Origin: a virus
Taxonomy: Duplodnaviria > Caudoviricetes
DNA length: 60,933 nucleotides
Strand: one strand, 5' to 3'
Virus record (IMG/VR): IMGVR_UViG_3300032226_000085
Coordinates: 1-60,933 of that record
The position numbers and the translations under genes were made by a program. A model generated the notes under the pieces. It saw nothing but the letters and a program-made list of their open reading frames with translations. It made no database searches and was not told the DNA's origin. Below, in pieces: positions 1,742-60,933 of the stretch. Position 1 is the first letter of the stretch. The number at the start of each line of letters is the position of its first letter.

Positions 1742-1760
1742 TTTTTAAAAGGAGAAGTAA

Positions 1761-1865
1761 ATGTATTTAGAAGACAGCGAGATAAAGATGCTGCTTGCAG
1801 CAGTATGCGGTGCGCTGGCTGGCACCATGGTAGCGGTGTTGTTCTTTCTTTTTGTGGGGGTGTGA
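1761..1865 (+). CDS. 34-aa single-TM membrane protein
   Basis: RBS AAAGGAGAAGTAA-ATG; MYLEDSEIKMLLAAVCGALAGTMVAVLFFLFVGV (below ORF-track cutoff). Confidence 0.7.
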   Translation: MYLEDSEIKMLLAAVCGALAGTMVAVLFFLFVGV

Positions 1866-3517: not shown

Positions 3518-4132
3518 ATGTCCAACTTAGCCACTGCATTACAAATCGCACTAGCCAAAAAAACTGAACAGGAGAAGCAAATGCAAACACGTACAACTAC
3601 ACCAGAAGACATCAAGCATATCGTCAACGCTTGGGCGAAGGATGACCCACGGGAAGACGCAAGACCCGCGCTGCCCCATGCATTCAAGCCCACCAACAAC
3701 GTCAGCCGTGAGACGTTCAATGCCGTAAGAGATAACCCACGACTGCAACACAAAGACATCGCCCGTATGCTGTCTAACCGCGGGTTCAACCAAGCCTCTA
3801 TAGGTTCCCTGCTTACGCAGATGCTTAACTGCGGCATGGTCGCAAGGGATGACAACGGGCGCTACACCGCACTGCAAACGGAGTACACGCCGATCAAGGC
3901 AAGCACGAAGACAAAGGCCAAGAAGAAAGTCGCTGTCCCTGCAACCAAGAAGCCTAACGCTGGCATTGCCGCGCTGGAGACGCAGGATACTGTGGCCAAG
4001 AAGGTGGTGACGATAACCAGACGCACAGAGCCAGCCCCTGCCTTTGACCCAGAGCAACTACTATCAACACTTTCTTTCTCGCAAGTCATGGCGCTGTACA
4101 AACGCATCAAGGCCATGGTGGGAGAGGCATGA
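3518..4132 (+). CDS. Putative winged-helix DNA-binding protein
   Basis: RBS GAGG before ATG 3518; SRETFNAVRDNP...IGSLLTQMLNCGMVARDDNGRY wHTH-like segment; second strong RBS before in-frame ATG 3581. Confidence 0.65.
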   Translation: MSNLATALQIALAKKTEQEKQMQTRTTTPEDIKHIVNAWAKDDPREDARPALPHAFKPTNNVSRETFNAVRDNPRLQHKDIARMLSNRGFNQASIGSLLTQMLNCGMVARDDNGRYTALQTEYTPIKASTKTKAKKKVAVPATKKPNAGIAALETQDTVAKKVVTITRRTEPAPAFDPEQLLSTLSFSQVMALYKRIKAMVGEA

Positions 4133-4293: not shown

Positions 4294-4502
4294 ACATACG
4301 AAAGAAACCCACGCTGAGAGAACTGGCCGACTATATTGAGGACAACGCCCGAAGCGAGATGGATACTGAAGCAGCCGCTGCACTGCGCAAGTATTCAGTG
4401 CTATCCAAAGTGGCACATGAAATGGTCACGGCTAACACACACGACAGCAGCAGGTCTGCTTACTTAGAAATGGTTGACTTGATAAAGGGGAAGACAGAAT
4501 GA
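4290..4502 (+). CDS. Hypothetical protein (70 aa)
   Basis: GTGA overlap, RBS GGAGG. Confidence 0.65.
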   Translation: MNIRKKPTLRELADYIEDNARSEMDTEAAAALRKYSVLSKVAHEMVTANTHDSSRSAYLEMVDLIKGKTE

Positions 4503-6057: not shown

Positions 6058-6072
6058 ACAAAGGAGAAGCAA

Positions 6073-6864
6073 ATGACTTACGGGCCACCTGTAAGTAAAC
6101 AATGTGAGTACTGCAAAAAAGAATACAAATGCCCAAACAGTAGGGCAAACAAGTCTCGTTTTTGCACAATCACCTGCCGTAACAAGAGTGGGTTGCTTGA
6201 CAGGGTTGAGTACAAATGCGTCAACTGCAATGACGAGTTTATGGCACGACCTGACCACGGCGCTGCCCGCAAGTTTTGCAGTAGGAAATGCTTTTTAGAG
6301 AACTGCGTTCAACCTATTGATAAAGAGTGCGAAAACTGCGGCAGTATGTTTACTGCAACGCGATCATCAACCGCTACCCGTGGCGATGGGTGGAGGCTAT
6401 ATTGCTCTAAAAAATGTTATGTAGAAGGCGCACGTAAATTTGAAGAAAAGCCATGTGTTTATTGTGGCACTATGTTTTATCCTCGGAGTATAAAACACGA
6501 CGCTACGCAAAGAACGTGTTCCATGAAATGCTCTTCAAAGTTTTTCTCCGGGGCAAATGCTCACAACTTCAAAGGCGGCGTACATTTGCAACAGGCAACC
6601 AACCATAATTTTGTCTTGATTGGAAAGCGAGAAGGGTACGTGAGTAAGTACACGGCTCAACATCGACTGGTCTGCGCCAAGCAGATTGGAAGAATGCTAA
6701 ATAGGGGGGAGGTTGTAATACACATAAATAATGACGGTTTGGACAACAGCCCCTCAAACTTATTTTTGTGTGAGTCAATGAGTGAGTTTTCAAGAAGAAG
6801 GCAGGGTTCTTTGCCGTGGCCTAAACAAAGTAATCTAAAAGAGTATAAGGAGAAAAACAATTGA
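6073..6864 (+). CDS. Zinc-finger-repeat HNH endonuclease
   Basis: Four CxxC...F/YCSxxC-type repeats, then HRLV...GEVVIHINNDGLDNSPSNL; lower GC. Confidence 0.8.
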   Translation: MTYGPPVSKQCEYCKKEYKCPNSRANKSRFCTITCRNKSGLLDRVEYKCVNCNDEFMARPDHGAARKFCSRKCFLENCVQPIDKECENCGSMFTATRSSTATRGDGWRLYCSKKCYVEGARKFEEKPCVYCGTMFYPRSIKHDATQRTCSMKCSSKFFSGANAHNFKGGVHLQQATNHNFVLIGKREGYVSKYTAQHRLVCAKQIGRMLNRGEVVIHINNDGLDNSPSNLFLCESMSEFSRRRQGSLPWPKQSNLKEYKEKNN

Positions 6865-8834
6865 GTAAACCATACGAACGAATCATCGTTCTGGACTACG
6901 AGACGGCGTGGGGTAGGGGAGTCAAGCTGGGGTTCTCGTGTCAGACGAATGAGGAGTACTTGCGTGATCCACGCTTTAAAGCATGGGGCTTGTGTTGGAA
7001 GGACTACGGTGACCCCCTACCTGCCACATGGATAAGAGGCCGTGACATCGCAGCATGGGCAAAAGATATTGACTGGAGCAAGACCGCAGTCATCGCTCAG
7101 AACGCGCTGTTCGATGTGTCCATACTGGCGTGGGTATACGGCTGTCATCCTGCCTTTGTCTTCGACACGCTGTCCATGGGCAGGGCTGTGCGTGGTGTCG
7201 AGGCTGGCAACAGCTTGAAGAAGATGGCAGAGGACTTCGGTCTTGAGGCCAAGGGGCAGGGGCTGGCTTCGTCAGAGAACTACCTTGACGAGCTACCGTT
7301 CCACGTTGAGCAGGAGTTGGCGGACTACTGCCGCCATGATGTGTACTTGTGTGAAGAAATCTTTAAGCGTCTGGTCGATGGCTACCCTGCGTCCGAGCTA
7401 CGTTTAATCGACATGACACTGAAGATGTATACCCAACCACGCTTGGTGCTCGATGAGCAGATGCTGTTCCAAGCCATTGAAGAAGAAAGGACAACACGTG
7501 AAGAACTTTTGGCAAGACTTAATGTGGACGATGCAACGCTGGCAAGCAACCCTAAATTCGCAGATGTTTTGGCTTCGCTGGGATGCGCAGTTCCATATAA
7601 GAAGAGCAAGACGACAGGTAAGCAGACACTGGCACTTGCTAAGAATGACGCTATGTTCCAAGCACTACTGCACAGCGACAAAGAAGATGTCCGACTCTTA
7701 TGCGAAGCACGACTGCGAGTTAAATCTACAACTGAGCGCACACGAGCGCAAAGATTCTTAGACATCTCAAGCCGTGGTCCACTACCTGTACCGCTTGCCT
7801 ACTACGGTGCGACTACTGGGCGGTGGACAGCAGCCAAGGGGAGCGCGATCAACATGCAGAACTTAAAGCGTGGCAGCTTCCTGCGCAAGGCGATCATGGC
7901 TCCTGATGGGTATGCGTTGGTGGTGGGTGACTTGTCTCAGATCGAGCCAAGGGTGTTGGCGTGGCTTACTGACTACGAGGATATGCTGAACATCTTCCGT
8001 GCCGGGGTAGACCCTTATGCTGCCTTCGGTGCACAGATGTTTCGTATCCCTGACCTAACCAAGGACAGCCACCCAGAGCTACGGCAGAGCGCCAAGTCAG
8101 CGTTGCTTGGCTGTGGGTATGGGCTTGGGTGGGCATCGTTCGCATCGCAGTTGCTGACCGGCTTTCTGGGGGCACCACCTGTGCGGTACGAGGCGACATT
8201 TGCCAGACAGTTGGGGGCTAACCAGAAACTTGCGGAGGAGTTTTTAAGTTGGCGGGATACCGAGGCGAAGCTGCGGGACATACCCCACACCTGTAGCTTA
8301 AAGGAGTTGGTGTTCCATGCCATCGCAGCCAAGCGCATCATCGACATCTACCGCAAGACCGCCTACCCAGTTGTTTCCTTTTGGGAAATGTGTACAGGCT
8401 TGATCGAGCGCAGTCTTTACGGTGGCGAGGAGTTCGTGTATAAATGTCTAATCTTCCGCAAGGGCGAGATCGAATTGCCCAACGGAATGAAACTGCTTTA
8501 TCCAAACTTACGCATTGAACCAGACGATACAGGTAGGAGCCAGTGGGTATACGGGCCAGACGCTACCAAGTTGTACGCAGGTAAAGTAACAAACAATGTT
8601 ACTCAGGCATTGGCACGTATTGTGATGACTGATGGGATGCTGCGGGTAGCTAAAAGATACCCTGTGGTTGGCACCGTTCACGATGAACAGATCACCATGG
8701 TGCCGGAAAACGAAGCCGCTGAAGCCCTAGAATGGGTTTTGGCGCAGATGACTATGGAGCCTTCATACATGCGAGGGATTCCGTTATCAGCAGATGGTGG
8801 TACACACAAGCGGTATGGCATGACTAAGAACTAA
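6861..8834 (+). CDS. DNA polymerase family A with 3'-5' exonuclease domain
   Basis: LDYET (ExoI), YCRHDV (ExoIII), TGRW, GDLSQIEPRV (motif A), RQSAKSALLGCGYG (motif B), TVHDE (motif C); TTG start. Confidence 0.93.
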   Translation: MSKPYERIIVLDYETAWGRGVKLGFSCQTNEEYLRDPRFKAWGLCWKDYGDPLPATWIRGRDIAAWAKDIDWSKTAVIAQNALFDVSILAWVYGCHPAFVFDTLSMGRAVRGVEAGNSLKKMAEDFGLEAKGQGLASSENYLDELPFHVEQELADYCRHDVYLCEEIFKRLVDGYPASELRLIDMTLKMYTQPRLVLDEQMLFQAIEEERTTREELLARLNVDDATLASNPKFADVLASLGCAVPYKKSKTTGKQTLALAKNDAMFQALLHSDKEDVRLLCEARLRVKSTTERTRAQRFLDISSRGPLPVPLAYYGATTGRWTAAKGSAINMQNLKRGSFLRKAIMAPDGYALVVGDLSQIEPRVLAWLTDYEDMLNIFRAGVDPYAAFGAQMFRIPDLTKDSHPELRQSAKSALLGCGYGLGWASFASQLLTGFLGAPPVRYEATFARQLGANQKLAEEFLSWRDTEAKLRDIPHTCSLKELVFHAIAAKRIIDIYRKTAYPVVSFWEMCTGLIERSLYGGEEFVYKCLIFRKGEIELPNGMKLLYPNLRIEPDDTGRSQWVYGPDATKLYAGKVTNNVTQALARIVMTDGMLRVAKRYPVVGTVHDEQITMVPENEAAEALEWVLAQMTMEPSYMRGIPLSADGGTHKRYGMTKN

Positions 8835-8845
8835 AGGAGAAGCAA

Positions 8846-9175
8846 TTGGATAAAACTAGAAAGCAGAAGTTAGAGTTACCACGCAAGATCAGGGTAGGTA
8901 AGAAGATGTATACCGTTGACATACTGGAGACGATGCTGCAAAGCGGTGACATGGCGCGGGTGCATTACGACCGCAACCGTATTGAGCTTGGCAAGAAGAG
9001 CAGCGTCACTGGTAGACGGTACTCAAAAAAAGAAATGAACGATTCGTTCTGGCATGAGTTGGTACATGCCATTCTGTACGACATGGATGAGCATCGACTT
9101 AACCGCAATGAGAAGTTCGTTACCGAGTTTGCACACCGGCTGTCAGAAGCCATTGACTCTGCGAGGTTTGAATGA
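8846..9175 (+). CDS. Putative HExxH metallopeptidase-like protein
   Basis: FWHELVHAIL...NEKFV; RBS AAAGGAG, TTG start. Confidence 0.7.
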   Translation: MDKTRKQKLELPRKIRVGKKMYTVDILETMLQSGDMARVHYDRNRIELGKKSSVTGRRYSKKEMNDSFWHELVHAILYDMDEHRLNRNEKFVTEFAHRLSEAIDSARFE

Positions 9176-10338: not shown

Positions 10339-10565
10339 CACGCAACTACAAGTCCGAGTACGACAACTACCACGGCAACCCGGAGCAAGTTAAAAACCGT
10401 GCCGAGCGAGTCAAAGCTAGGCGCATGATGGAGAAGACCGGCGCTGTTACTAAGGGTGACGGCAAAGATGTAGACCACAAGAAGCCGCTGCGTTCAGGCG
10501 GCACAACAACAAAGAGCAACCTCAGAGTTCGCAGCAAGTCAGCAAATAGAAGTGATAATAAATAG
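10335..10565 (+). CDS. Small HNH endonuclease-like protein
   Basis: GDGKDVDHKKPLRSGG...SNLRV...NRS. Confidence 0.8.
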   Translation: MTRNYKSEYDNYHGNPEQVKNRAERVKARRMMEKTGAVTKGDGKDVDHKKPLRSGGTTTKSNLRVRSKSANRSDNK

Positions 10566-10574
10566 GGGAAGTAA

Positions 10575-12137
10575 ATGCAAATCGTCGATAACAAAGCGTT
10601 GCTATTTCGCACTCGCAACCCAGACAAGTATCGGGTAATTCCTAAACATAAAGTACTTAACAGGAGCGCAGATGGTACAGCGGAGATTGCAGTTTATTGG
10701 GGGCTTGATGAAGCGCGGGTTCTCAAGAACCTTGGCGTCAAAGACGTTCCTTCGCCTATCACTAGGCGGTATAACTGGCCGGGTAAGTACACACCGATGG
10801 CGCACCAGATTGAAACGGCAGCGTTTCTCACTATGCATAAGAAAGCGTTCGTGTTTTCGGAGCCGGGAACTGGCAAGACTCTTTCGGCTCTATGGGCAGC
10901 GGACTACTTGATGCAACGTGGGGATGTGCGGCGCTGTCTCATTTTGTGCCCGCTCTCTATTATGCAGTCAGCATGGCTAGGTGACTTGAACAACAGCATC
11001 ATTCATCGCTCCGCGATTATCGCGCACCACGCGCAGGCTGGTCGCCGTATCGAAATGGTTCAGCAAGACTACGACTTTGTTATTGCCAACTACGATGGAC
11101 TAAACTTGATTGCTGACGAGGTTATCAATGACGGACGCTTTGATCTTGTTATCGTCGATGAAGCCAACGCATACAAGACCATGACCACCAAGCGTTGGAA
11201 GGCGTTGAAGGCTGTAGTCGGACCCAACACCCACCTGTGGATGATGACGGGTACGCCAGCATCGCAGTCACCTGCGGATGCGTATGGGTTAGCTAGGTTA
11301 GTCAACCCTGATGGTGTGCCTAAGTTCTTCACAGGCTGGCGCGATAAGGTCATGAACAAAGTCACGCAGTTCAAGTGGGTGCCGAAAGCCAGCGCAGCGG
11401 AGGATGTTCATGAAGCCTTGCAGCCCGCCATACGCTTTACCAAAGAGCAGTGCCTTGATTTGCCCCCAGTACTCACCATGACGCGAGAGGTACCGCTGAC
11501 ACCACAGCAAGCCAAGTACTACAACCTGTTGAAAGAACGCATGATGGTGCAAGCAGCAGGTGAGACCATCACTGCTGTGAATGCCGCTGCCGGGGTATCT
11601 AAGCTATTGCAAATATCATGCGGCGCAGCGTACACAGATGATAAGGAAGTCATTGAGTTCGATGCTGCCCCACGCCTCTCAGTGCTGGAGGAAATACTGG
11701 AAGAGACTTCACGCAAGGTCATCATCTTCGCTTTGTTTCGCAGCACCATCAGTGCCATACACACGCACTTGCTCAAAAGAAACATCAGTGCCGAGGTCAT
11801 CCACGGTGACATCACACCGCCCAAACGCGCAGACATTATTCGACGTTTCCAGACAGAGAAAGACCCACGAGTACTTGTCATGCAGCCTCAAGCAACTGCA
11901 CACGGTATCACCTTGACTGCTGCGGATACGGTGGTGTTCTTCGGTCCGTTGATGTCTGTTGAACAATATATCCAGTGTATTGCACGGGCTGACCGCAAGG
12001 GGCAGGACTCTGACAAGGTCACCGTTATCCACATTCAGGGAAGCCCTATTGAGAAACGTATGTTCAAGGCGCTGGAGGGCAAGGTCACAGATAACAGTCT
12101 GCTAACGCAGATGTTCAACGCTGAAATAAAAACGTGA
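10575..12137 (+). CDS. SNF2-like superfamily 2 helicase
   Basis: EPGTGKT, IVDEA, MTGTP, HGITLT, QCIARADRKGQ. Confidence 0.9.
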   Translation: MQIVDNKALLFRTRNPDKYRVIPKHKVLNRSADGTAEIAVYWGLDEARVLKNLGVKDVPSPITRRYNWPGKYTPMAHQIETAAFLTMHKKAFVFSEPGTGKTLSALWAADYLMQRGDVRRCLILCPLSIMQSAWLGDLNNSIIHRSAIIAHHAQAGRRIEMVQQDYDFVIANYDGLNLIADEVINDGRFDLVIVDEANAYKTMTTKRWKALKAVVGPNTHLWMMTGTPASQSPADAYGLARLVNPDGVPKFFTGWRDKVMNKVTQFKWVPKASAAEDVHEALQPAIRFTKEQCLDLPPVLTMTREVPLTPQQAKYYNLLKERMMVQAAGETITAVNAAAGVSKLLQISCGAAYTDDKEVIEFDAAPRLSVLEEILEETSRKVIIFALFRSTISAIHTHLLKRNISAEVIHGDITPPKRADIIRRFQTEKDPRVLVMQPQATAHGITLTAADTVVFFGPLMSVEQYIQCIARADRKGQDSDKVTVIHIQGSPIEKRMFKALEGKVTDNSLLTQMFNAEIKT

Positions 12138-12144
12138 AAGGGGG

Positions 12145-12188
12145 TTGCAAACGAAACTGGTTTTAGGTAATCTGTCAAACGCTAGACA
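12145..12188 (+). promoter_or_regulatory. Putative sigma70 promoter with overlapping TGTC-N8-GACA operator
   Basis: TTGCAA-17 nt-TAATCT; TGTCAAACGCTAGACA at 12173-12188. Confidence 0.55.
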
Positions 12189-12206
12189 AAATAATAGGAG
12201 AAGCAA

Positions 12207-12611
12207 ATGAATGAAACCATCATTCCGCTGGACAAGCTTGCGAAAATTTATCGCAAGATCAAGATGGAGATCGACACGCTGACGCAAGAGTACGACACTA
12301 AGTTGGAAGCACTCAAAGCGCAGCAAGACGAACTTCGTTTCGCAATGAAAGACCAGATGAAGGCGCTTGGCGTCAAGTCGGTCAACACCACCTTCGGTAC
12401 CGTGTCATTGGTAAACAAAACCCGTTACAACACACAGGACTGGGACTCGTTTAAGAAGTTCATCATCGAGCACGATGTCGTAGACCTGTTGGAGAAACGG
12501 ATTGCGCAAACCAATATGGCGCGGTTCCTTGAAGAAAATCCGGCGCTTGTACCACCCGGATTAAACGCATACACGGACTTCGAAGTTCGTGTGACTAAAC
12601 CTACTAAGTGA
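12207..12611 (+). CDS. Coiled-coil replication/recombination-module protein
   Basis: N-terminal coiled coil, T.FGTV, DWDSF..FI, LLEKRI, PPGLN. Confidence 0.7.
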   Translation: MNETIIPLDKLAKIYRKIKMEIDTLTQEYDTKLEALKAQQDELRFAMKDQMKALGVKSVNTTFGTVSLVNKTRYNTQDWDSFKKFIIEHDVVDLLEKRIAQTNMARFLEENPALVPPGLNAYTDFEVRVTKPTK

Positions 12612-54290: not shown

Positions 54291-55820
54291 TTAGTAGTAC
54301 GCCGCTTTTCTGGCGCGGTGGTATATGGGTTCGTCTTTTTCGTCGGTATCAAGGGTAATGAACCCCCCTTGCCTAAAGCGTAGCAGTGCTTGCGACGTAG
54401 TATCCACGAAGTCATCGTGTTCGCCAACTGGGAAGGCTGCTACTTCTTCGATAACTTCTCTGGCCCACCTTGTGTCAGGTGCCCAGACTTTTCCGCTGGT
54501 AAACAGATCCGCGACAGCGTTTAGTCGCACGTGTTTGTCGTTGCCCCGGCTGGGGCTGAACTCTTGGACTGGGATACCCATTGCCCGAAGTTCTTGAATA
54601 AGCGGGGCGCCTGCTGCCTTTTTCTCCACAATGAATGCATCTGGCTCCCATTCTTTATAGTGCTTGAGCGCAGCTTGTTTTAAATCTGGAAACGCCATCC
54701 GCTCCTTGAACGCGTCCAACAGTATTAACTGTGGCGTGTCGTTCTCTTCTTCGTTGTACCAGATTCCCCACGTGGTGCAGGCTGAATAGTCGGAGTTGTT
54801 CTTGGTCTCAAACGCCGTATCCCAACTCTGGATGATGTACTCGCACTGCGGGGGGTCGTCGTGGTCCCAAATGCGCCAGTGCTTGCGCGAGATGATGGCC
54901 GAGTTTTCAGAGGTGGGGTTCTGCATGTACTGAGCGTTCCAGTACCGGGGGTCGAGTGACGCCTTGACTTTCTTTAACTGCTCCAGCGGCCACTGCTCTG
55001 GCCACAGGCTTTTCTCGTTCTCGTCGTTCTCATTCAAAATGGCCGGGAGTTCTACGATCTCCCATGGCTCGGCATCAGGGTTGCGTGTTTGATAATCGAT
55101 TAAACGGCCTGTCAGATCCAACAGCGACCATCTGGTCATAATGACAATAATTGCCCCTCCGGGCATCAGACGCTGCAACGGGCCTGTTTGAAACCAACTC
55201 CACGCCGTATCGAACGCCAGACGGCTGTTGCTCTTTACATCTTGCTCAGAGTGAGGGTCATCAATAACAAATAAGTCAGCACCGCGACCAGCCAAAGCGC
55301 CACCGACACCCGCTGCATAATACTGACCTCCTGCTCCGGTACTCCACTTTCCTGCTGCTTTCTGGTCATCTGCAATCCGCGTGTCTGGGTAAAGTTCGTG
55401 GTACTCCTCTGACTCAATTAAGTTCCGCACCCGCCGTCCAAAGTCTTCTGACAGACCCGCCGTGTGGGTGCCCATGATGATCTTCTTGTCTGGATACTTG
55501 CCTAAAAAATAAGCTGGGAACAGATAGCTGGAGAATTCGGACTTACCGTGACGCGGGGCGATGTTGATGATTACACGCTTTTTCTTGCCGCTGATGACAT
55601 CCTCAAAGATCTTTGAGAGCTTCCGGTGGTGGGGTCCGATCTTAAATCCCGGATACACGTGTGTAGCAAACCCCAGCATAGAGTCGCGCCCAATGATCTT
55701 GCTGGCGCGGGCAGCGCGTTCTTCTAAGTCCGCAAGCAGTTCCGCCTTCTCCCGTGGAGACAGCGTTGGCAAGGCGCGTTGGAGCGCCATTATCTCTTCA
55801 GGACTCAGTACTGGGTTCAT
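54291..55820 (-). CDS. terL: Terminase large subunit
   Basis: IAPRHGKS Walker A, VIDDPH Walker B, MTRW, QYMQNP, SWDTA, HDDFVD nuclease motifs. Confidence 0.92.
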   Translation of the reverse strand: MNPVLSPEEIMALQRALPTLSPREKAELLADLEERAARASKIIGRDSMLGFATHVYPGFKIGPHHRKLSKIFEDVISGKKKRVIINIAPRHGKSEFSSYLFPAYFLGKYPDKKIIMGTHTAGLSEDFGRRVRNLIESEEYHELYPDTRIADDQKAAGKWSTGAGGQYYAAGVGGALAGRGADLFVIDDPHSEQDVKSNSRLAFDTAWSWFQTGPLQRLMPGGAIIVIMTRWSLLDLTGRLIDYQTRNPDAEPWEIVELPAILNENDENEKSLWPEQWPLEQLKKVKASLDPRYWNAQYMQNPTSENSAIISRKHWRIWDHDDPPQCEYIIQSWDTAFETKNNSDYSACTTWGIWYNEEENDTPQLILLDAFKERMAFPDLKQAALKHYKEWEPDAFIVEKKAAGAPLIQELRAMGIPVQEFSPSRGNDKHVRLNAVADLFTSGKVWAPDTRWAREVIEEVAAFPVGEHDDFVDTTSQALLRFRQGGFITLDTDEKDEPIYHRARKAAYY

Positions 55821-56403
55821 TGTCTACACTTTGACATTCTATTTCTTCGACTTCTCTGACATCCGTGATGTCCACGATCTTGGCGAACTTACCCAGCTTT
55901 TCCTTGATCCGCGCTTCCAGTTCAGCGTCGGACAGTTCTGTCTTCTTAATCTCGATCTTCTCGGTGAACAGCCCCACTTCCGTGACCTTGCCCAGAAGTG
56001 CCAGTGCTTTAAGCCGTACGCTGGCTGTTGGGTGTTTGGTTTCTTCCAGCAGTTGGGCAACAGCATAGCCGCGAATCTCTTTGGCTTGATTGATAAACTC
56101 CCAATCGTATGCCGTTAGCATTCCAACAAGGTGTTGTACCGCAGCGGGGGTTTTGATTTCAGCCAATGCAGCGCGAGAGTGTTCGTCGGGCTGGGCTGTT
56201 ACGATATTGGTGAAGGCCGTTCTGGCTGCTTGGGACTCCAACTCATTGGCGAGTTCATCGCCTGCTGCGCCCAGACTCTTTAACCACTCGGCGGTATCTA
56301 CCTTGGCATCTACCAAGTCTACGGGGGCAGTCTTTTCAAACGTGACGAAGCCAGTGGAGTCATCATCCACATCGGGGGTAAATTCTATTAAGTGATCCAA
56401 CAT
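55798..56403 (-). CDS. Putative terminase small subunit
   Basis: Directly upstream of TerL; RLKALALLGKVTEVGLF; likely start ATG 56403. Confidence 0.6.
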   Translation of the reverse strand: MLDHLIEFTPDVDDDSTGFVTFEKTAPVDLVDAKVDTAEWLKSLGAAGDELANELESQAARTAFTNIVTAQPDEHSRAALAEIKTPAAVQHLVGMLTAYDWEFINQAKEIRGYAVAQLLEETKHPTASVRLKALALLGKVTEVGLFTEKIEIKKTELSDAELEARIKEKLGKFAKIVDITDVREVEEIECQSVDNEPSTES

Positions 56404-56414
56404 GCGCAGGTCCC

Positions 56415-56444
56415 TTGCGTACCTCGTTGCCCGGAGTGTATAGT
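56415..56444 (+). promoter_or_regulatory. Putative sigma70 promoter for candidate sRNA
   Basis: TTGCGT-18 nt-TATAGT. Confidence 0.55.
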
Positions 56445-56450
56445 GTGTCT

Positions 56451-56541
56451 TGCAAGTGCGCAAGTGGCAACTCTTCGCGTTTGCTTCTCCTTTGCTCGTG
56501 GTGAGCATATTTTGCCCTCGGTTTTGCCGGGGGCTTTTTTT
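56451..56541 (+). ncRNA. Candidate ~90-nt sRNA with anti-Shine-Dalgarno seed
   Basis: Upstream promoter, three hairpins, terminal GCCCTCGG/CCGGGGGC plus T7; seed CGTTTGCTTCTCCTTTG. Confidence 0.6.
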
Positions 56542-56550
56542 CGGCTGTGT

Positions 56551-56568
56551 TTGTCTAAGGTTAGACAA
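56551..56568. promoter_or_regulatory. Palindromic operator-like site TTGTCTAA-GG-TTAGACAA
   Basis: Perfect 8-bp arms; adjacent to a - strand TTGACA (56575-56580). Confidence 0.55.
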
Positions 56569-56824
56569 GTATATTGTCAATTTTTTAATAATAGTGGGGG
56601 GTTAAGTTTACAGTCGGTTGGAATTAAGTTGTCAGGGACGAGGTTTAAGTTTGCAGCGGCAAAAAACGCACTTTGCTGGCTACTTTCGTTTTTTGGGTAT
56701 TGTGTTGCTAAGTGAATAACGGAAATACTCGGGATGGTTATGGAACAGTGTTATATGCGGAGCGCCGCCGTGTTGTCAAAAAGGGGTTGTGGGGGTACGG
56801 TAGGGTCGAGATACTGCCTTTTTC

Positions 56825-56839
56825 GGGTCAAATTGACCC
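56825..56839 (+). promoter_or_regulatory. GGTCA-N3-TGACC palindrome
   Basis: GGGTCA-AAT-TGACCC upstream of first early gene. Confidence 0.7.
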
Positions 56840-56934
56840 CGTATCCGTCGATCAAACGGCGCACTCCGGATAATGGGTCTCGTCAATGGCACTTGCCCTT
56901 GGCAAACACAATCAACCCAATGAAAGGAAACACC

Positions 56935-57312
56935 ATGAACAAGCAAACACAATCCAAAGTCAACACACTCGTATCCAAGTTTCTTGATGCATCTGACGAC
57001 TTCGTCATTAGCTTGCACTCCGAGGGGCTTGATACGCCTGAACTTCAGCGGCCTTACGTCATCGTAGCGGTATGCGCGAAGTACACCGAGGGCAAGGGCT
57101 GGAATGAATCGTCAACGGGCAAGGTCATGCTCGACTCGAAGCACGAGCGGTACGAGTTTCTGAAAACCAAAGTGCGCGATGTCATGGCAGCACTCAAGGG
57201 CGAGACGCGTAGCGCGTCATCTGGCAAGACTGACCCTGTTGATGCGATCATCAAGGCGTTCAACAAGCTCGATGCGAAGCAGCAGCGTGCTGTCATCAAG
57301 GCTCTCGCTTGA
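56935..57312 (+). CDS. Early hypothetical protein (125 aa)
   Basis: RBS AAAGGA before ATG 56935. Confidence 0.75.
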   Translation: MNKQTQSKVNTLVSKFLDASDDFVISLHSEGLDTPELQRPYVIVAVCAKYTEGKGWNESSTGKVMLDSKHERYEFLKTKVRDVMAALKGETRSASSGKTDPVDAIIKAFNKLDAKQQRAVIKALA

Positions 57313-59976: not shown

Positions 59977-60933
59977 ATGATTGACAATGACTATTGCGGC
60001 TATGCCCGCTGGGAATGGATGATGTCTCTGGCCAACGTGCTGGAGGAACGCGCAAGGGTAGGTAACTACATCTTGAGCAACGGCTGGGATGCCATGCCCG
60101 CTGAATACAAGGTGAACTACCCTGACCCCGACCCTAAGAACTACCGTACTTGGTTCAAACGTGAGACTGACAACGCACCGATGCACCCTGCTATCCGTGA
60201 AGCAGTACGCCAAGCACCACCCGCAAACTGGCACTTGCTTGTCCTTGAGCACCCCCATGCATCACAGAATGACCCGAGCCGTATCGCATACACAAGGTCA
60301 GATGAGCACGGCTACGCTGACAGGCAGACGGTGACATCACTAGGCAAGTACTTGACGCGACACTTCCCTGCCCTGCGTGACCATCAGATACGCGACATCG
60401 TGATGCGTCACGGTGCTAGTCGGTTCGAGATGTGGGACACCGTCGAGAAGATCGTGCAGTCTGTACAAGATGGGCCACACTCATGTATGCGGTGGGAGAG
60501 ATACAACAAGGACACCGACGACACCCACCCCTACGAGGCGTACGACCCTGTGTATGGGTGGCGGGCAGCGGTGCGGCTCGACGCTAACAGCATCATCACG
60601 GCACGGTGCTTGGTCAACGTCGAGGAGATGACGTTTGTTCGGTCTTACACACGCAAAGATGGCGAGTACTCGCACAGCGACGAGGCCATCGAGGTGTGGC
60701 TGCGTGACCAAGGCTATACCAAGAACTGTAGCTGGTCGGGTCTCAAGATGAAGCGCATCACCAAGGGTAGGCACAACGATGACTTCTGGGCGCCCTACCT
60801 TGACGGTGACTGCAAGAATGTGGCGGACTGCGGTGACTACTTATGTATTGACCACGATGGTGACTACGACTGCTCTCGTACGGATGGTCATGCAGACGGC
60901 TCATCGAACTACTCGTGTTGTGACTGCGGTGAA
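59977..60933 (+). CDS. 5' part of the join-spanning ~484-aa hypothetical protein
   Basis: RBS AAAGGA; open frame MIDNDY...GKYLTRHF...HSCM...ARCLV...FVRSY...APYLDG continuing into 1-621; missed by the ORF track. Confidence 0.85.
   Translation, partial: MIDNDYCGYARWEWMMSLANVLEERARVGNYILSNGWDAMPAEYKVNYPDPDPKNYRTWFKRETDNAPMHPAIREAVRQAPPANWHLLVLEHPHASQNDPSRIAYTRSDEHGYADRQTVTSLGKYLTRHFPALRDHQIRDIVMRHGASRFEMWDTVEKIVQSVQDGPHSCMRWERYNKDTDDTHPYEAYDPVYGWRAAVRLDANSIITARCLVNVEEMTFVRSYTRKDGEYSHSDEAIEVWLRDQGYTKNCSWSGLKMKRITKGRHNDDFWAPYLDGDCKNVADCGDYLCIDHDGDYDCSRTDGHADGSSNYSCCDCGE
60811..60933. repeat. Terminal direct repeat copy 2
   Basis: Identical to 1-123. Confidence 0.95.

Follow-up and report, generated by a model that had tools for sequence, protein, structure and literature searches.

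The DNA analyzed here, the IMG/VR virus record IMGVR_UViG_3300032226_000085 (60,933 bp, referred to below as the window), is a complete record with 123-bp terminal repeats, whose genes are laid out in two divergent arms. The + strand arm runs from about 56.9 kb through the record ends to 17.2 kb, and includes the genes for a DNA polymerase, a helicase, a primase-helicase and an HNH endonuclease. The – strand arm runs from 56.4 kb down to 17.2 kb, its first genes being one for a protein of 201 amino acids (aa) and then terL. In the 530-nucleotide (nt) gap between the arms sits a short + strand unit, at 56415–56541, which a first-pass annotation had read as a candidate gene for a small RNA (sRNA) antisense to the start sites of the phage's own replication genes.

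Anatomy of the unit at 56415–56541

As listed in Table 1, the unit consists of promoter-like hexamers, two hairpins with an unpaired linker between them and an intrinsic terminator, the last of which was called by a terminator scan. The positions first given for the promoter, hairpins, linker, terminator and target sites all checked out, and the fold then described is exactly the minimum free energy (MFE) structure of 56450–56541. This structure has an energy of –35.9 kcal/mol (z = –3.47), and 1 of 200 shuffled sequences was equally stable. The linker is complementary to Shine–Dalgarno (SD) sequences, whereas the half of the seed that is proximal to the AUG of a target is sequestered in hairpin 1, by a 5' arm that itself resembles the target. 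A U-run 3' of the G+C-rich stem is found on the + strand only.

Two + strand open reading frames (ORFs) that cross the unit, of 51 and 107 aa, were considered as coding and rejected, since non-triplet insertions and deletions in the hairpins of relatives exclude a conserved frame. We are confident in predicting that 56415–56541 (+) is a gene for a plus-strand RNA.

Table 1. Features of the sRNA unit, of its candidate target start regions and of the surrounding DNA (positions in the window).
Feature	Position	Strand	Remarks
–35-like hexamer TTGCGT	56415–56420	+	overlaps the SD-like AAGGGA of the 201-aa gene on the other strand
–10 hexamer TATAGT	56439–56444	+	18-nt spacer after the –35
Predicted sRNA, ~92 nt	56450–56541	+	5' end inferred from the –10, 3' end from the terminator U-run
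Hairpin 1	56452–56484	+	5' arm GCAAGUGCG (56452–60) pairs with CGCGUUUGC (56476–84)
Full seed CGUUUGCUUCUCCUUUG	56478–56494	+	
Unpaired anti-SD stretch UUCUCCUU(U)	56485–56493	+	single-stranded in the MFE structure
Hairpin 2, UGCUC / GAGCA	56493–56507	+	
Intrinsic terminator	56514–56541	+	9-bp G+C-rich stem at 56514–34, U7 at 56535–41
Start region, 34-aa ORF, AAAGGAGAAGTAAATG	1748–1763	+	
Start region, 183-aa protein	3570–3583	+	no family match
Start region, HNH endonuclease gene (6073–6864)	6059–6075	+	gene overlaps the start of the DNA polymerase gene (6861–8834)
Start region, 109-aa protein	8833–8848	+	TTG start
Start region, DNA helicase gene, AGGGGAAGTAAATG	10564–10577	+	
Start region, 134-aa protein	12196–12209	+	weak Mu Gam-like / DUF7307 matches
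201-aa gene upstream of terL	55798–56403	–	ATG at 56403; SD-like AAGGGA at ~56410–16
Conserved block AACAGTGTT	56744–56752		between the sRNA terminator and the first early gene
G-rich conserved block GGGGGTACGGTAGGGTC	56791–56807		
Conserved hairpin GGGTCAAATTGACCC	56825–56839		compensatory variants in relatives
–10-like GATAAT	56869–56874		TGcTATAcT in other relatives; ~60 nt before ATG 56935
Palindrome copy	56552–56567		11 nt past the sRNA terminator; kept in most relatives
Palindrome copy	55821–55836		adjoins the terL ATG, which is without an SD
Palindrome copy	12173–12188		7 nt before the signature start of the 134-aa gene; conserved alongside it, even in G009

Conservation of the predicted RNA gene and of its seed

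Relatives were found through the 201-aa protein, and 80 of the 139 loci in IMG/VR were compared. A covariance model built from 20 diverse members (R1) scored 91.7 bits at 56450–56541, its one copy in the window, and identified one correspondingly placed copy in each of 73 of the 80 related loci; in 14 of 15 fetched records it was the single copy in the genome. The seven loci missed by R1 comprised two with less than 30 nt of upstream DNA and five of one clade, four of which showed by eye no seed, hairpin 2 or terminator, while the fifth (L079) has only 143 nt upstream. This sRNA-less clade (G009, loci L105–L107; loci L075–L080) retains a –10-like box, a GCAAGTG look-alike of the 5' arm and half of the palindrome listed in Table 1.

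Of the 76 loci with 150 nt or more of upstream DNA, 72 show by eye the succession of promoter, variable hairpin 1, CATTTGCTTCTCCT, variable hairpin 2 and terminator. Of 52 distinct sequences, 51 have a promoter of the form TTGnnn / 17–19 nt / TAnnnT in the corresponding position, its –10 element being TATAGT in 15, TATACT in 14, TACACT in 11, TATATT in 7 and some other hexamer in 4.

The expectation that related phages would keep the unit, and with compensatory changes in its structure, was borne out. In a model-based alignment of 49 distinct sequences, 86.0% of the cells were paired, as compared to 35–54% when the partners were slid, and 17 of 25 pairs had changed on both sides (2–10 when slid); none of 500 shuffles attained the observed value on any of five measures. 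An alignment of this kind is fitted to R1 and hence favors structure, but an independent MAFFT alignment (A2) agreed with it, giving 87.3% paired versus 38–53% slid, and 12 pairs versus 3–7. A MAFFT alignment of all 49 RNAs (A1) misaligned hairpin 2, and RNAalifold saw only 9 pairs in it. Each of the 49 tails, folded alone, forms exactly two hairpins. Compensatory changes affect 7 of the 9 pairs of the terminator stem, and all 3 modeled pairs of hairpin 2 have changed on both sides across relatives, with many different stems found in that place. In two loci (L051:1680–1773 and L053:1080–1174, minus strand) a second CU-rich stretch, CCCCUCCUU, occurs on the 3' side of hairpin 2 and is reminiscent of the pair of CU-rich regions in the Burkholderia double-hairpin RNAs discussed below.

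Whereas hairpin 2 and the terminator have been rewritten many times, none of the 49 sequences shows a change in TGCTT or in the first C of CTCC, and each of the 49 MFE folds leaves the UCUCC core single-stranded. The 3' arm of hairpin 1 (CAUUUGC) never varies; its outer pairs change on the 5' side only (CG to UG, AU to GU), and in a way that preserves pairing. The seed is therefore under sequence constraint, and not merely under a structural one. In the window the seed reads CGUUUGC where relatives have CAUUUGC, and seed changes that remove the ATG on the minus strand (CAU to CGU or UGU) still allow pairing with AUG through G·U.

As for the spread of the family, a blastn search with 56300–56950 yielded no match in 50,697 phage records. 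At least 120 IMG/VR contigs contain the canonical seed with a G-run and a U-run after it and, among the pattern matches listed, 71 of 77 further loci fit R1 at E ≤0.01. In 185,579 prokaryote genomes, scanned with the canonical seed only, the seed-plus-U-run pattern occurred at 15 places in scattered taxa, the best of which scored 25.7 bits with R1, as compared to at least 29.7 bits for every accepted family member. The sRNA family looks phage-specific.

Candidate target start sites and their covariation with the seed

The seed complement AGGAGAAGCAAATG, a 14-mer, occurs exactly at 3570, 6062 and 12196, with one mismatch at 1750 and 8835, and with two mismatches at 10564, 59571 (+) and 60232 (–); the sRNA locus itself matches on the minus strand (56478–91, reading ...AAACG). 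These 9 matches at up to two mismatches compare with 0.53 expected, and none of 100 shuffles reached 9. In a genome-wide scan for seed duplexes, the self-antisense site was followed by seven + strand starts, namely 6073, 3581, 1761, 4129, 10575, 12207 and 8846. When the full-length RNA was co-folded with 87 start regions, taking into account the opening costs of both partners, the six signature starts all ranked within the top 9, and the best net energy (–18.6 kcal/mol) belonged to the start at 6073. The start-site scans were independent of gene calls, and five starts were set by hand before the co-fold ranking.

The first-pass annotation had also stated that the deviations in the targets become G·U pairs. 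By a hand count in the ortholog table, about 12 of 23 are indeed compatible with wobble pairing, whereas the TTG start at 8846 is a true mismatch. The comparison with controls that it had asked for came out in its favor: 8–10 start regions attained 70% of the perfect-duplex energy with the real seed, versus averages of 0.35–3.2 for control seeds that kept the anti-SD part and had shuffled, random or substituted heads.

The signature recurs among the relatives with the canonical seed whose genomes are complete or large. Sites within one mismatch of it, on the sRNA-sense strand, number 5, 5, 4, 9, 4, 3, 3 and 4 in genomes G000–G004, G007, G008 and G010, respectively, and the same scan of the canonical-seed relatives matched the other strand at the sRNA locus only. 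In terms of spacers, AAGCAA makes up 4/18, 5/20, 2/17, 4/22 and 4/25 of the GGAG-N6-start sites of G000–G004; it is the commonest spacer on that strand, with CAACAC, AAGCAC and AAGCAG each also occurring twice.

Four gene families carry the signature in 5–8 genomes, namely those of the 183-aa protein, the helicase, the 134-aa Gam-like protein and the 109-aa protein. The signature-bearing BLAST cluster of the first of these families comprises eight genomes, and here the ortholog search chose non-signature starts for the G003 and G004 homologues. Alignments of target orthologues show a conservation peak at –13 to +3, while the 32 nt upstream diverge; in the helicase orthologues, GAAG[CT]AAATG (the spacer plus ATG) is better conserved than the SD. 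Other carriers are lineage-specific. An example is the HNH endonuclease gene at 6073–6864, whose signature is exact and to which no signature-bearing gene in the other compared genomes is orthologous; this gene may have come in as a mobile insertion and taken on the local start-site signature. When targets are called middle genes, this is based on gene content and position only.

The proposed check on whether the seed is conserved and covaries with the start-site signature likewise came out in favor. Genomes with GCUUCUCC seeds have 45 starts of the type GAGAAG[CT]A and 4 of the type GAGAAAG[CT]A, while the corresponding numbers for GCUUUCUCC seeds are 2 and 7, so that seeds with an extra U go with starts having an extra A (Fisher p = 3.4e-5, a value that overstates independence, as the covariation comes from two lineages of related genomes). 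The genomes with GCUUUCUCC seeds are three in number (G006 and G011 in one lineage, G012 in the other), and in G011 both the helicase and the 134-aa orthologues read GGAGAAAGC. G014 and G015, whose seed is CAUGUUGC, have one GGAGAAACAACATG start each and no canonical-type site at up to one mismatch.

Genomes without the RNA gave a complementary picture. G009, from the sRNA-less clade, has no R1 match and no signature site at up to one mismatch genome-wide, and it holds orthologues of the helicase (71% identity) and of the 134-aa protein (61% identity) whose start regions are without the signature. However, G009 also has few GGAG-N6-start sites (4 + 1 in 41 kb), so that a general loss of SD sequences confounds the missing signature and takes weight from this control; its helicase start region has no SD, and the clade's host, as these data hint, makes little use of SD. 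In four cultured relatives, HTVC027P (a Pelagibacter phage), 023Pt_psg01, DSL-LC04 and MinM2 (a Synechococcus phage), no R1 match was found within 3 kb of terL, and their whole genomes contain 0, 1, 0 and 0 signature sites, respectively, at up to one mismatch.

A probable base-pairing regulator and its alternatives

We consider it reasonably probable that 56450–56541 (+) encodes a trans-acting base-pairing sRNA, the representative of a new phage family that has a start-site signature as its target. The trans model is preferred because comparison revealed a conserved anatomy, an invariant seed, an excess of the signature with strand bias, and covariation of seed and targets.

According to this model, a host-type RNA polymerase would start at the sigma-70-like promoter, back-to-back with the start of the late packaging operon, and transcription would end at the intrinsic terminator. 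The resulting RNA would expose UUCUCCUU, its anti-SD stretch, while the adjoining CAUUUGC (CGUUUGC here), which complements the spacer and AUG of the targets, would be kept in hairpin 1 by the target-like 5' arm. Pairing, once begun at the exposed anti-SD, would invade hairpin 1 and so cover with 13–17 bp the SD, spacer and start codon of AGGAGAAGCAAAUG mRNAs. The 30S subunit would thereby be kept off the mRNAs for the helicase, for the HNH endonuclease ahead of the DNA polymerase, for the Gam-like protein and for small uncharacterized proteins. We assume repression by occlusion because this is established sRNA biology and because of what has been reported for Burkholderia double-hairpin RNAs (PMC5688073). 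If the late-operon leader is read through the locus, it would sponge up the RNA perfectly, and synthesis of the RNA would be lowered by convergent transcription. That the RNA is produced, that it represses rather than activates, its timing, the strand-invasion step and any role of Hfq are all things that we infer.

The original observation is thus confirmed, while its interpretation, a single trans-acting RNA that shuts down a regulon of replication genes, is partly supported: conservation, covariation and excess pairing speak for it, whereas repression and timing are predictions. More than 100 relatives appear to carry a conserved gene for a ~90-base RNA complementary to the start sites of several of their own replication genes, and this RNA probably throttles the translation of these genes.

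A bolder version can be envisaged, which we put forward as a tentative and rather doubtful scheme. The sRNA would read a "start-site barcode", i.e., the 13–14-nt SD-spacer-AUG segment of a replication/recombination regulon with which the seed coevolves. The target mimic in the 5' arm of hairpin 1 would let only those mRNAs bind that match beyond the SD, and late transcription, by both blocking synthesis of the RNA and sponging it, would complete an RNA-only timer for the passage from replication to packaging in a phage lineage of virulent type. If true, the scheme would amount to a T4 RegA regulon with RNA in place of the protein.

Several observations weigh against the trans model, besides the dependence among genomes and the SD loss mentioned above. 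The –35 element fits only 3 of 6 consensus positions, and because of this the strict promoter scan missed the sRNA promoter, calling none here. The one metatranscriptome run that matched (0.07 of words; contigs) covered mostly terL, with most matches less than 90% alike, plus a few flanking spots, and its contigs give nothing over 56310–56577, which says nothing on expression. Since every MFE fold has the AUG-proximal half of the seed in pairs, longer duplexes have to meet the cost of opening hairpin 1. In co-folding, the non-signature start at 4499 ranks second of 87, on par with the best targets, and some control seeds match the observed counts (0–13 of 200–255, up to 13/255). G005 has a canonical seed, yet three AAA-type starts and one site at up to one mismatch, while G012 has no site within one mismatch of the complement of its own seed. 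Covariation, moreover, would also be expected if the minus-strand copy of the seed were one more coevolving start site. Finally, the nearest cultured phages (hosts Pelagibacter, cyanobacteria or a gammaproteobacterium) are only 44–53% identical in TerL and the prokaryote pattern matches are not family members, so that neither points to a host by which promoter use and Hfq dependence could be judged.

The RNA has a partial likeness to a class known from bacteria. Scores with the Rfam family RF02278 (Betaproteobacteria_toxic_sRNA) were 22.6 bits at 56484–56541, 27.9 bits in L035 and 29.4 bits in L081, none of which passes the gathering score of 50. The shape of that family, an unpaired CU-rich stretch (here UUCUCCUU) followed by hairpin 2 and the terminator, is present in all 49 homologues. 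The phage RNA differs in having an extra 5' hairpin, absent from the family model, that sequesters part of the seed, and in a seed that reaches over the spacer and start codon of one specific signature. It is also phage-encoded, in one copy per genome, with predicted targets among the phage's own genes, whereas several copies in betaproteobacterial chromosomes are the trait of the RF02278 class. The Burkholderia double-hairpin sRNAs (ncS03, ncS05, ncS27 and ncS62) have CU-rich unpaired regions predicted to target the ribosome-binding site (RBS) or start regions of many mRNAs and, as described in the same report, overexpression of ncS27 attenuates growth (PMC5688073). By analogy, what would be new here is a phage sRNA family outside Rfam, below the RF02278 threshold, and what would be known is its double-hairpin, anti-RBS mode of action.

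Among regulators encoded by phages, sar of P22 and OOP of lambda are antisense RNAs of the RBS-blocking type. The same holds for c4 of P1/P7, which acts in trans via short complementary stretches shown by its structure (PMC12197685). All of these resemble the present RNA in being small, phage-encoded and directed at the region around the RBS of phage mRNAs. However, c4, sar and OOP each serve one gene or operon (ant, cII) in temperate phages, whereas here there are 5–10 dispersed predicted targets with a shared signature, no lysogeny genes were noticed, and the RBS of the overlapped gene is not covered. The T4 translational repressor RegA and the endoribonuclease RegB act on a short motif in the initiation regions of many early and middle mRNAs, whose translation is lowered. 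The likeness lies in one phage factor addressing many start regions; RegA and RegB are proteins, whereas recognition here would be by base pairing, and therefore seed and targets can covary. Two abundant intergenic RNAs of ~100 nt from the virulent phage PAK_P3, sRNA1 and sRNA2, have been proposed to act in trans, but the only phage matches reported for them are isolated stretches of 11 nt within genes, sRNA2 is similar to the T-loop of a tRNA, and no shared start-site signature is described (PMC4933390). Our literature search, supplementary tables aside (among them a list of 38 uncharacterized phage sRNAs in PMC12197685), found no phage sRNA described as a reader of a start-site signature shared by its own phage's genes.

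Other explanations of the locus have to be weighed against the same data. The + strand RNA could act only in cis on the late (packaging) leader, by duplex-triggered cleavage or by transcriptional interference, its other matches being functionless. The unit does lie wholly inside the would-be late leader, with the 201-aa gene and terL next in line, and late transcripts starting beyond 56541 would have a leader antisense to the sRNA. Phage antisense RNAs of such a type (c4, sar and OOP) are known, and as the sRNA promoter shares DNA with the SD region of the late gene, promoters and starts could interfere. A purely cis-acting antisense RNA, however, is complementary whatever its sequence, and thus the scheme leaves unexplained the strand-specific enrichment of the 14-mer elsewhere, the covariation of seed and targets, and a seed that is invariant though the neighboring protein is 53–60% identical and both 3' hairpins are rewritten. 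The first-pass annotation had itself allowed for a cis effect on the late leader, but covering of its RBS can be discarded, because the RNA starts ~47 nt short of the ATG and leaves both this and the SD-like AAGGGA outside. An exclusively cis function seems to us unlikely. We assign a small chance to a general anti-SD RNA on the model of the Burkholderia double-hairpin sRNAs, a "toxic" sRNA that would dampen translation in the host, with phage start sites being incidental or secondary. The exposed part of the RNA is, after all, a generic anti-SD, sub-threshold RF02278 matches recur among relatives, and the CU-rich regions and growth effect of ncS27 reported for Burkholderia set a precedent. 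A generic anti-SD leaves unexplained the invariance of CAUUUGC and a covariation that reaches into the spacer, and heads other than the real one match far fewer phage start regions.

The functional element might also be the minus-strand copy, AGGAGAAGCAAAUG, within the late leader, serving as the start of a leader ORF, as a ribosome stand-by site or as a protein operator, with the + strand features secondary. An SD, a 4–7-nt spacer (mostly 6) and an ATG are found there in 38 of 52 distinct relatives, the ORF of the closest relatives, by reading of the sequences, ends just inside the downstream gene, and covariation with the other start sites would follow naturally. Yet the start codon is missing in 14 of the 52, including the window (ACG); of the 38 with an ATG, 14 stop between codons 1 and 26, and the other 24 run on in frames 0, 1 or 2 with respect to the downstream gene; no peptide is conserved beyond what the promoter imposes; and the U-run after the G+C-rich hairpin, which exists on the + strand only, is conserved with compensatory stem changes. 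A protein-coding minus-strand leader ORF was rejected, as start codon, frame and peptide all lack conservation, which also disposes of the worry that the site is simply the RBS of a conserved – strand gene; the minus-strand element in its wider sense we deem very unlikely. The unit could furthermore be the promoter-proximal, terminated leader of the rightward early operon, with read-through feeding the early genes; in lambda, a short terminated transcript precedes an antitermination-controlled operon. The unit indeed points toward the early genes, and no consensus promoter was called anywhere in 55800–57300. The prospects of such a leader are slim, as the ATG at 56935 comes only after ~390 nt of DNA that is conserved separately and has a –10-like box near 56869, and a leader would have no reason to be complementary to start sites 5–17 kb downstream. 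Least credible of all is a non-functional unit in intergenic DNA conserved for other purposes, complementary to the start sites by chance. That the metatranscriptome contigs leave 56310–56577 uncovered would suit it, but it is hard to square with the conserved structure, the target excess over controls and the covariation, or with the fit of 71 of 77 further loci to R1 and the gap between prokaryote matches (≤25.7 bits) and members (≥29.7 bits).

Few functions are known for the sRNAs of lytic phages, and the published examples that we found act on single genes or on host targets. If the trans model is right, phages can organize a translational regulon by base pairing, and the family is a natural case of seed–target coevolution that involves helicase, polymerase-linked and recombination genes. 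It would also provide a new RNA family for annotating an abundant group of uncultured phages, and might find use in engineering as a translational repressor that is both compact and orthogonal.

Some features of the surrounding DNA deserve mention. The 201-aa protein has no Pfam or PHROG family above threshold, and its gene is, by position only, a putative small terminase gene; the ATG at 56403 is backed by alignment from residue 1 in all the full-length relatives listed, with the truncated L078 as the exception. No tRNA genes were found in the window. The ~390 nt between the sRNA terminator and the first early ATG (56935) are conserved separately from the sRNA unit, and blocks within them (Table 1) are kept in 9 of 9 aligned relatives. 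The segment 56744–56874 may represent an early promoter plus a structured leader, or an origin-like region. Iteron-like direct repeats, GGTT(T)AAGTTT[AG]CAG, are found at ~56600–56613 and 56642–56656, with two copies in the window and three in L014. The palindrome TGTC[TA]A-N4-T[TA]GACA occurs at three window sites, which amounts to 6 strand-matches versus 0.51 expected; its role may be that of an operator, of a –35 overlap or of a site related to packaging. Within the otherwise + strand arm, the segment 59947–60904 contains several – strand ORFs of 46–103 aa, whose status as genes is doubtful, and one of these has a signature-like start (60232–60245, two mismatches).

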